Below, in pieces: positions 45,431 to 52,371 of a DNA stretch of 64,000 bases. Source of the stretch: Desulfatiglandales bacterium (GTDB lineage Bacteria; Desulfobacterota; DSM-4660; Desulfatiglandales; Desulfatiglandaceae); assembly GCA_963662465.1 (NCBI GenBank), contig OY759599.1:3680001-3744000 (forward strand), in the 5' to 3' direction. The position numbers were made by a program, and so were the translations under genes. The notes beneath the pieces are model-generated. The model saw only the letters and a program-made list of their open reading frames with translations. It had not been told where the DNA came from and searched no databases. Position 1 is the stretch's first letter. Every line of letters starts with the position of its first letter.

Positions 45431-46651
45431 TTGAATGTGGACCTTCAATCTTTAAAAAACACAATCCAACAGGAACCTAATTTCACCCTCAGGCGCGCCA
45501 TTGAACGTCTGCGGGAAGGGATATTCGATCCCTTCGCAATCCGATTGCTCACCGCCCGGGAGGAACAACTGGCTCAAGCCTTTGAGCGGGGATTTGCCTC
45601 CCCCAGGGACAACTTTTTCCCCCATCTTTGCATCCGCGGCAATTACGGGCAGGGGAAAAGCCACTCCCTGGCCTATCTTCAGGAAAAAGCGCTGAAGGAC
45701 GGGTTTGCGACCAGCATGATCAACCTCGATCCCCGGGAGGTCCCCTTTCACGATTTCAGAGGGGTATACCGGGAACTCCTGACCCAAATTCACTTTCCGG
45801 ACCATGAGGGGACCTTTTTTTCAAAATGGAAATCCTGGTCGGAAGAGAACCAACCCCTCATTCACCTGCCGGATGAAATGCCGCATTTTTTCAAGGCCAT
45901 GCTGACGGCCGCGGCCAACAAAACCATTCCGCTTTCCGACAAACAAAAGACCCTTAAAAAGCACCGGCAATACCATCCCCGGGAGTTTCCCTTTCTTCTC
46001 AAACGCGCCCTGTCAGGGGCCGTTGTACCGGTATGCCGATTGAAAAATGCCTGCAAGTACCGCGATGTCGAATTTTACAAGGACGCGCCCCTGAAATGCA
46101 CGGACCCCCATGACTACCTCACACAGATATTCTGTCTGGCAACCCTTTTTAAACACATGGGCTACAAGGGGTGGGTGGTTCTCTTTGATGAAGGCGAATC
46201 CATTGCGCAAACCCGGGTGACTTGCAGATCCAAAAGCTATCAGTTCCTTCACCGGTTATTTCTTCACAACCGCTCGCTTACGGGACTTTATCCGATCTTT
46301 GCCTTTACCGACGATTTTTTCTTTCGCGTCAAAGCGGAAGCTTACGATCGTATTCGGGTCACTAAAAAAGGGGAATTCCCCTGCTTTGACATGAACTACG
46401 CCCATGCATGGGAAAACCTGGGCGTCCACCAACTCCATGATTTGTCCGAAAAAGAATGGGGGGAATTGACCCGGAAACTCCTCTTGCTTCACATGGGGGC
46501 CTATACATGGGTCCCCGAAAACGGCCACATTCAAGGGGAAATGGAAACGGTTCTGGCGCAAACCCTCAACCGGGAAACCCGCGCAAGGATGCAATCCCTG
46601 GTCAACCAACTGGATATGGCCCACCAGGAACAGGTGCTGCACCTGACATAG
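45431..46651 (+). CDS. Second BrxD/DUF2791-like P-loop ATPase
   Basis: RRAIERLREG, Walker A GNYGQGKSHSL, Walker B WVVLFDEGE. Confidence 0.8.
   Translation: MNVDLQSLKNTIQQEPNFTLRRAIERLREGIFDPFAIRLLTAREEQLAQAFERGFASPRDNFFPHLCIRGNYGQGKSHSLAYLQEKALKDGFATSMINLDPREVPFHDFRGVYRELLTQIHFPDHEGTFFSKWKSWSEENQPLIHLPDEMPHFFKAMLTAAANKTIPLSDKQKTLKKHRQYHPREFPFLLKRALSGAVVPVCRLKNACKYRDVEFYKDAPLKCTDPHDYLTQIFCLATLFKHMGYKGWVVLFDEGESIAQTRVTCRSKSYQFLHRLFLHNRSLTGLYPIFAFTDDFFFRVKAEAYDRIRVTKKGEFPCFDMNYAHAWENLGVHQLHDLSEKEWGELTRKLLLLHMGAYTWVPENGHIQGEMETVLAQTLNRETRARMQSLVNQLDMAHQEQVLHLT

Positions 46652-52371: not shown

Follow-up and report, generated by a model that had tools for sequence, protein, structure and literature searches.

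The window analysed here, a stretch of 64,000 nucleotides from the genome of a Desulfatiglandales bacterium, carries a gene of about 1900 codons whose product runs from an SF2 helicase through a 1+3-Cys PD-(D/E)XK nuclease, an HhH stretch and a degenerate DEDD/RNase H-like domain to an SF1B helicase. Judged by gene order at related loci, this fusion gene is the last of a conserved four-gene cassette (A, D1, D2 and the fusion gene). The features, in window coordinates, are:

42292..43134, + strand: cassette gene A, 280 aa, of no known family, conserved at 43-95% in related loci
43134..44435, + strand: D1, a BrxD/SngB-type AAA+ ATPase of 433 aa, with Walker A, Walker B and the ALWSR arginine-finger motif intact
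44454..45270, - strand: inserted TacA/GNAT toxin-antitoxin (TA) pair, not part of the cassette core (Pfam TacA1, GNAT)
45431..46651, + strand: D2, a second, diverged BrxD-type ATPase of 406 aa (PF10923, E 5e-19)
46669..52371, + strand: the fusion gene, whose product of about 1900 aa joins a BrxHI/Lhr-type SF2 helicase, a TM0106-type Fe-S nuclease and a Dna2/Upf1-type SF1B helicase
46723..47691, + strand: SF2 helicase core, two RecA folds, motifs Q to VI with DEVH (Pfam DEAD, Helicase_C; PDB match)
47716..48780, + strand: Lhr/BrxHI winged-helix and C-terminal domains, including W594 (48235), counterpart of Lhr Trp597 (PADLOC BrxHI, SngC)
48931..49725, + strand: Cas4/RecB-type PD-(D/E)XK nuclease with 1+3 cysteines, C843; C1069, C1072 and C1078 (PF01930)
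49726..49905, + strand: HhH-like helical stretch (aligned to the equivalent TM0106 stretch; helical in the model)
49930..50499, + strand: degenerate domain of DEDD/RNase H-like type that lacks the first acidic motif (fold match, RNase_H_2 look-alikes, motif columns)
50503..50970, + strand: helical stalk and beta-barrel (1B) domain of Upf1/Dna2 type (structural alignment with IGHMBP2, Upf1 and Dna2)
50971..52368, + strand: SF1B helicase core, motifs Q to VI (Pfam AAA_11, AAA_12; Dna2 profile match)

The first-pass annotation had placed the SF2, nuclease and SF1 motif sets in one open frame, and every motif was found at the position it had given. In the SF2 core these are Q (FPFQ, 46735), I (GTGSGKT, 46798), Ia (46888), Ib (47020), DEVH (47110), SAT (47215), IV (47404), V (47563) and VI (47653); in the nuclease, QCERF (48979), PD (49324), EIK (49378), QxxxY (49420) and CxxCx5C (49660-49689); and in the SF1 core, Walker A (51121), Ia (51229), DEASQ (51499), III (51574), IV (51736), V (52105) and VI (52204). 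Pfam matches above the curated cut-offs were DEAD and Helicase_C (aa 95-407), Cas_Cas4 (970-1079, over the nuclease) and AAA_11/AAA_12 (1535-1934). The uninterrupted frame spans 46456-52371, or 1971 aa from an ATG at 46456 that overlaps the upstream gene, and residue numbers of the fusion protein are counted from that ATG. It was rejected as the start codon, its first 71 codons overlapping D2 and being absent from the closest homologues. The likely start is a TTG at 46669, which would yield 1900 aa; this assignment is based on the length of the closest homologues (1900-1906 aa among the matches listed), on a TTG or ATG at the equivalent position in four related loci, and on a sixth relative, of 560 aa, that starts MDSPLL. 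Counts of promoters and terminators matched chance expectation. Short contig pieces of all four cassette genes, from relatives, were present in an RNA run, and contigs cannot show transcription. Directly after the fusion gene lies a comM (Mg-chelatase-like) fragment (52278-52661, - strand) that looks like a deletion or integration scar; an intact comM is located at 7.485 Mb of the host genome (G000), and at loci L031 and L032 the comM found in this place is intact.

Partner genes and the composition of the cassette

Gene A had no Pfam, PADLOC or NCBIfam match, and its Atlas clusters are unnamed. Its structural model (pLDDT 92) begins with helices, continues with a small beta domain and ends in a topology like that of a winged helix. 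Fold searches with gene A gave no significant match: they returned helical bundles, with Z no higher than 7.8, and some weak winged-helix matches (Stn1 and the Cdt1 CTD among them, E about 1), all of which serve as leads only. D1 matched PF10923 (E 2e-57), PADLOC BrxD (3e-45) and SngB (1e-34), and fell below the NCBIfam BrxD equivalog cut-off (153 versus 350 bits); its homologues have the GxxGxGKT, DE and WSR motifs in 38/38 cases. D2 matched SngB at E 1e-5, with GQGKS and FDEGE kept in 45-47 of 47 homologues and no conserved counterpart of the D1 ALWSR motif among these 47. An ATPase with this motif beside one without it would suit a heteromer.

The TacA/GNAT pair is missing at loci L018 and L029 and is skipped by contigs of two other runs. 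At L031 a 90-92% identical pair lies between D2 and the fusion gene, as opposed to between D1 and D2 here, and the host genome has about ten further GNAT homologues.

When 90 loci were examined, all three partner genes (A, D1 and D2) were present at 23 of the 27 with at least 6 kb of sequence upstream, among them one locus where the partners lie downstream of the fusion gene and another where a deletion has broken the ATPases. All four loci without partners come from one lineage, a sibling of which (L055) has the partners 8-10 kb upstream. Counted by sequence cluster, several loci being near-copies, the cassette was present in 16/16 at 6 kb and 26/28 at 3.6 kb. At five loci of one lineage (L044, L047, L053, L054, L055), the genes immediately upstream of the fusion gene encode a PIF1-HRDC-HTH helicase and a Phd/PIN pair, which push the partner genes 8-10 kb off or out of view.

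A survey of 24 loci took in 160 ORFs that lay in the cassette or no more than 3.5 kb away, of which 131 were scanned together and the other 29 were omitted for size or already known. No DNA methyltransferase, PglZ or TerB was found in these 3.5-kb flanks. TA or restriction-type genes, mostly TA pairs, lay within 3.5 kb at 12 of the 24 loci, a count without a baseline, and many flanks are housekeeping genes; the flanks are mixed, and with no baseline the TA and restriction-type genes are weak support for a defence role. The position of the cassette after rlmKL is stable within the genus.

Two helicase motors around a Fe-S nuclease

In PADLOC searches the N-terminal half matched BrxHI over aa 90-762 (E 3.5e-87) and SngC (E 1e-66). 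The best PDB sequence match of the SF2 core was mycobacterial Lhr (E 5e-36), while the N-terminal half scored below the curated Lhr family cut-offs (TIGR04121, 192 versus 850 bits; PRK13767, 171 versus 849); by these profile scores (PADLOC and NCBIfam) it is closer to the defence helicases BrxHI/SngC than to repair Lhr. Lhr is damage-induced, moves 3'-5', prefers RNA:DNA hybrids and requires T145, R279, I528 and W597 (PMC5758891). Counterparts of the Lhr ratchet residues R122, T145, S148, R279 and W597 were present in 115/115 aligned fusion homologues (from the best 120 of 306), with T191, R321 and W594, which correspond to T145, R279 and W597, likewise kept in 115/115; W594 was matched to W597 in a weak PDB alignment segment, in numbering that agrees with three published residues. 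The probable counterpart of the wedge residue I528 is F525 (114 F and 1 L among the 115), assigned by motif with no significant alignment, and Lhr R280 was not kept in this same set.

The four nuclease cysteines are predicted to form a [4Fe-4S] staple. TIGR03491 matched the fusion nuclease at E 6e-11, with 42 bits against a cut-off of 97.45, and gave 212 bits for the host's own canonical TM0106 protein. Profile alignment of the middle of the fusion protein with a canonical TM0106 protein of the host (hhalign, 99.2%, E 1.7e-19, 436 columns) ran through nuclease, HhH stretch and RNase H-like domain. As with TM0106/COG2251, an architecture listed as uncharacterised in PMC3985635, the order is 1+3-Cys nuclease, HhH, RNase H-like domain, SF1 helicase; the fusion protein differs in scoring below the TIGR03491 cut-off, in having lost the acidic motif of the RNase H-like domain and in lying behind an SF2 helicase. 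By these profile comparisons its C-terminal half is a diverged member of this nuclease-helicase family, which is also found as stand-alone proteins of 1200-1330 aa. At G000:C1 about 5598900-5602700 (L117:6905-10731), a canonical TM0106 nuclease of 621 aa with an intact FDME motif, a 194-aa ORF and a 490-aa SF1B helicase form three overlapping ORFs among neighbours that look defence-related from their translations.

The HhH-like stretch proposed in the first-pass annotation draws its support from the TM0106 alignment only and had no HhH Pfam match in the fusion protein. The adjoining region, which had been called probably degenerate RNase H-like, does have a DEDD exonuclease fold with the acidic motif lost: it aligned with a human 3' exonuclease (Z 13.6, rmsd 3.3, 169 residues, 6% identity), its RNase_H_2 look-alikes scored 0.93, and the FDME motif of canonical TM0106 aligns with LSAIP in the fusion protein. 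This first acidic motif is also gone in most of the nearest stand-alone relatives. The DxE motif of this domain is kept in the nearest unfused relative, a stand-alone nuclease-helicase of 1237 aa (P0152, P0292, P0293). PDB sequence searches with the nuclease/RNase H-like region gave no match.

The SF1B half has the motifs THxAID, DEASQ and GDxxQLPP together with the stalk and 1B barrel, and the best PDB profile match of its core was Dna2 (E 9e-50). Lhr-type motors move 3'-5' on ssDNA and Dna2/Upf1-type motors 5'-3', and by analogy with these relatives the two motors of the fusion protein probably have opposite polarity. In the structural model of the C-terminal half (pLDDT 81), stalk, barrel and SF1B core align with IGHMBP2, Upf1 and Dna2, and model residues 551-1169 match IGHMBP2 as one unit (Z 32.0, rmsd 3.6, 525 aligned). 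Foldseek ranked Dna2 first over 1250 columns at an rmsd of 31; VIA-align, which aligned only residues 550-1169, scored IGHMBP2, Upf1 and Senataxin above Dna2, so that the top structural matches are RNA helicases. Together with a PADLOC MkoA match to the SF1 core (E 1e-38), this ranking would speak for a Mokosh-like reading in which the SF1B half acts on RNA, with phage transcripts or transcription complexes as targets in place of duplex DNA ends. We regard this as very improbable: the nuclease belongs with the DNases of Cas4/AddB/Dna2 type, the domain resembling RNase H is degenerate, and Dna2, the best sequence match, is itself Upf1-type in its helicase arrangement (PMC4716839).

Age, loss and spread of the fusion

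A full-length homologue search returned 306 proteins, the best 120 of which were used for conservation counts. All six domain blocks lie in one chain in 118 of these 120, by profiles built from the fusion family. An alignment retained 115 homologues of 1850-2200 aa and dropped five shorter ones; as top-scoring matches, the 115 lean towards intact copies. Among them, the catalytic residues of SF2 and of SF1 were each kept in 115/115, the four cysteines in 114, the nuclease D-(D/E)-K-QxxxY set in 109, and all four residue sets together in 108. The intact Cas4/Dna2-type nuclease and the two intact motors in a single chain, both claimed at first pass, are borne out by these counts, and the present copy keeps the catalytic residues of both motors and of the nuclease. 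The nuclease lysine is absent in 3 of 26 more diverse fused relatives.

The junction was also checked against short reads, in which one 13.4-kb contig (depth 27.9) spans 40000-52453 and hence the whole gene with 0 differences and 0 gaps; this contig may come from the source sample, making it an assembly check and not independent biology. Joining of two genes by misassembly or by a recent stop-codon loss, to which a few split or truncated relatives (L043, L062, L073, L103) might be thought to point, is given virtually no credence, with the spanning contig and 118 one-chain homologues among the best 120 of 306 against it, and with the truncated forms nesting inside the fused clade. In a FastTree tree of the nuclease-helicase half, 27 fused rows lie on one side of a branch (SH 100) from 39 rows without the Lhr half, and fused chains form one clade. 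By these comparisons the fusion is old and conserved, which rejects both an artefact and the recent loss of a stop codon; we infer a single origin, in which a nuclease-helicase of TM0106 type became linked to the BrxHI-type helicase of a pre-existing A-D-D-helicase cassette.

Seven proteins comprising the N-terminal half only branch within the fused clade, at six different positions (FastTree), which fits repeated loss of the C-terminal half, and some of them are probably contig ends or frameshifts. L103 ends cleanly after the Lhr half, with no C-terminal half within the next 10 kb. Loss of the nuclease lysine and relatives that end after the Lhr half indicate that the halves of the fusion are separable.

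Full-length copies of the fusion were found in 4 of 60 relatives, and the nuclease region had matches in 6 of 400 genomes of the phylum and none in plasmid or phage collections; a single-protein search of genome contigs found only three close loci. Sources among the matches listed include Desulfobacteraceae, Electrothrix, SAR324, Gemmatimonadetes, Latescibacteria and Methylococcales. The gene A profile matched in 16 of 400 genomes: five fusion cassettes, two in which BrxD-type ATPases accompany an unfused Lhr-like helicase, one with two ATPases and a SNF2 helicase, seven orphans and one cut contig. Distant gene A homologues without ATPases or helicase (L132-L138, in G231, G201, G098, G260, G290, G168 and G135) adjoin the same two metabolic-looking genes in seven genomes.

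The host genome itself contains an unfused sister cassette (L116, G000:C1 about 1846800-1856100, - strand), with a SNF2 helicase (804 aa), an unknown 389-aa protein, an A-like protein of 290 aa, two BrxD-type ATPases and an unfused Lhr-like helicase of 682 aa; no PADLOC system covers it as a whole, and similar cassettes occur at L120 and L121. An unfused A-D-D-helicase cassette is also present on a 27-kb plasmid of Desulfomonile tiedjei (L147:10215-15641, NC_018026.1), where its neighbours are an AbiE pair and an integrase. In three members of the genus that lack the cassette, the site after rlmKL is occupied by genes that, as read from translations, are TA-like or transposase-like. RecB, RecC and RecD are encoded by separate genes elsewhere in the host genome, recB and recD being adjacent and recC about 170 kb away (G000:C1 5529300-5535240 and 5707718), and replacement of RecBCD by the fusion protein was rejected on this ground.

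These distributions bear on whether the cassette might be an accessory machine for DNA repair or for forks and R-loops, in which the Lhr-type helicase would unwind DNA at stalled forks, crosslinks or RNA:DNA hybrids and a Dna2-like activity would do the trimming. The damage induction and hybrid preference of Lhr (PMC5758891), the role of Dna2 as a repair nuclease (PMC5393063, PMC4716839), the many housekeeping flanks and the stable rlmKL site agree with such a function; but the spread is patchy, the host has RecBCD, the N-terminal half is closer to BrxHI/SngC than to repair Lhr and the link to BrxD-type ATPases looks obligate, and on balance we consider it unlikely.

Comparison with known systems and candidate role of the cassette

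The BrxHI match and the BrxD-type ATPase directly upstream recall the BrxD-BrxHI dyad of type 2 (and 6) BREX, a linked pair in which BrxD has been suggested as the loader of BrxHI (PMC12839542). By comparison with that dyad, the cassette has two BrxD paralogues, gene A and a 1150-aa nuclease-helicase extension on the helicase, and none of the type 2 BREX genes PglW, PglX, BrxC/PglY and PglZ was found in the window cassette and its neighbours or in the 3.5-kb flanks of 24 loci. Shango, a tested defence system (10.1101/2022.11.11.516204) made up of SngA (TerB-like), SngB (ATPase) and SngC (helicase), likewise pairs an ATPase with an Lhr-like helicase without a methyltransferase; the cassette differs in a first gene without a TerB/SngA match, in its two ATPases, and in the fused nuclease and second motor. 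The BrxHI/SngC-type N-terminal half and the two BrxD-type ATPases point to an accessory defence-type system, and with some defining features of BREX and of Shango lacking, the cassette is placed as a variant of the BrxD-BrxHI/Shango kind with a two-motor effector.

For the effector itself, the first-pass annotation had proposed a single-chain bipolar helicase-nuclease like RecBCD. The single chain and its two intact motors hold; the likeness to RecBCD gives way to a closer model, a RecQ-family lead helicase with Dna2, because the nuclease precedes the Upf1-type motor, as in Dna2. RecBCD, AddAB and AdnAB are also helicase-nucleases with two motor folds, RecBCD being bipolar and AddB having a Fe-S staple (PMC5393063), but they are multi-subunit enzymes with SF1A lead motors and a nuclease behind the motor. 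An SF1A (UvrD-type) lead motor with a trailing nuclease was not found in the fusion protein, where the candidate lead motor is SF2, the SF1 motor is Upf1-type and the nuclease comes first; a nuclease-before-motor order is described as not known from prokaryotic resection enzymes (PMC5393063). With Dna2 and its partners Sgs1/BLM/WRN, the fusion protein has in common a Fe-S PD-(D/E)XK nuclease followed by stalk, barrel and SF1B motor, together with an SF2 helicase whose polarity is 3'-5' in the partners and probably so here, a comparison that claims no orthology. In that pathway the RecQ helicase leads 3'-5' and DNA2 translocates 5'-3' on the displaced strand and degrades it (PMC5393063). The fusion protein is, by contrast, one chain, Lhr-type and not RecQ in its SF2 part, with an extra HhH and RNase H-like insert and an accessory cassette. 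The best reading of the whole is that of a Shango/BREX-derived accessory machine that would resemble Sgs1/BLM plus Dna2 in one chain rather than RecBCD.

We favour, at somewhat less than even confidence, a role of the fusion protein as effector of an accessory four-gene system that would attack invading DNA (phage, plasmid) with its motors coupled. The Dna2 nuclease is a tunnel that requires a free ssDNA end. In this reading, the product of gene A and the two ORC/Cdc6-clade ATPases would detect a particular DNA structure, such as an end, a gap or an intermediate of replication, and would load the fusion protein; the Lhr motor would unwind as lead helicase, and the displaced 5'-ended strand would thread through the nuclease, pulled by the SF1B motor, and be degraded. 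Targets would be chosen by DNA structure, no DNA methyltransferase having been found in the cassette or in the flanks scanned. This coupled anti-invader reading draws on the catalytic conservation, the Lhr ratchet residues and Dna2 as best match of the C-terminal half; on the BrxHI, SngC, BrxD and SngB scores, the conserved cassette, its patchy spread and the presence of RecBCD in the host; and on the unfused plasmid cassette with its AbiE pair and the TA- or transposase-like genes at the empty rlmKL site. Against it stand the housekeeping flanks, the lack of a nuclease match in the plasmid and phage collections, the separable halves, the poorly conserved linker, the RNA helicases that head the structural matches of the SF1B half, the hybrid preference of Lhr, and a Dna2 helicase that sits behind the nuclease and is said not to drive threading (PMC4716839). 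The more specific proposal, tentative but possible, is that the single chain is a processive bipolar helicase-nuclease, in which the SF2 motor (3'-5') and SF1B motor (5'-3') would run on opposite strands and feed the Fe-S tunnel, loaded by a heteromeric ORC/Cdc6-like ATPase pair and a winged-helix adaptor, as the core of a methylation-independent defence.

The motors need not work on the same fork. In Hachiman (HamAB), an SF2 sensor and a PD-(D/E)XK effector act on DNA structures without a methyltransferase (PMC12278908), and the BrxHI-type motor of the fusion protein might similarly sense damaged or foreign DNA and release a tethered TM0106 nuclease-helicase, which would degrade DNA including that of the host, as in a Hachiman-like abortive response. 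In line with this, the fusion halves exist as separate proteins elsewhere, the linker between them is variable and poorly conserved (53-91 aa), and the C-terminal half changes faster than the N-terminal half in three relatives (amino-acid difference 15-38% versus 5-16%). Such a tethered arrangement nevertheless seems doubtful, given that lineages as far apart as about 40% identity still have the fusion, that every catalytic residue is kept in both motors and that no inhibitory partner is evident. Hachiman also differs in its components, with a Ski2-like HamB and no Fe-S nuclease, second motor or ATPase pair, and BrxHI/SngC form a defence-linked SF2 clade separate from HamB (PMC12278908).

No description of the fusion chain or of the cassette was found in the open-access papers searched; the supplement of PMC12839542 may list such neighbourhoods. 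The portion covered of 10.1101/2025.09.30.679545 makes no mention of BrxD, RecB or Dna2, and a preprint on YprA mentions a DNA2-like gene that lies, as a gene of its own, next to BRIGADE type I systems (10.1101/2025.09.15.676423). PADLOC PLDC02895 (DpdJ, 2112 positions), in which the SF1B domain comes first, could be another chain that joins SF1 and SF2. The parts are known, and the cassette with its two-motor effector is apparently undescribed.

Known bipolar helicase-nucleases are multi-subunit (RecBCD; RecQ with Dna2). If the favoured reading is true, the fusion protein would be a natural one-chain version in which motor coupling could be tested with single point mutants. The cassette offers a minimal setting for the role of BrxD and BrxHI in BREX and Shango, and for that of the TM0106 nuclease-helicases, and the presence of fused and unfused sister cassettes in one genome provides a ready comparison.
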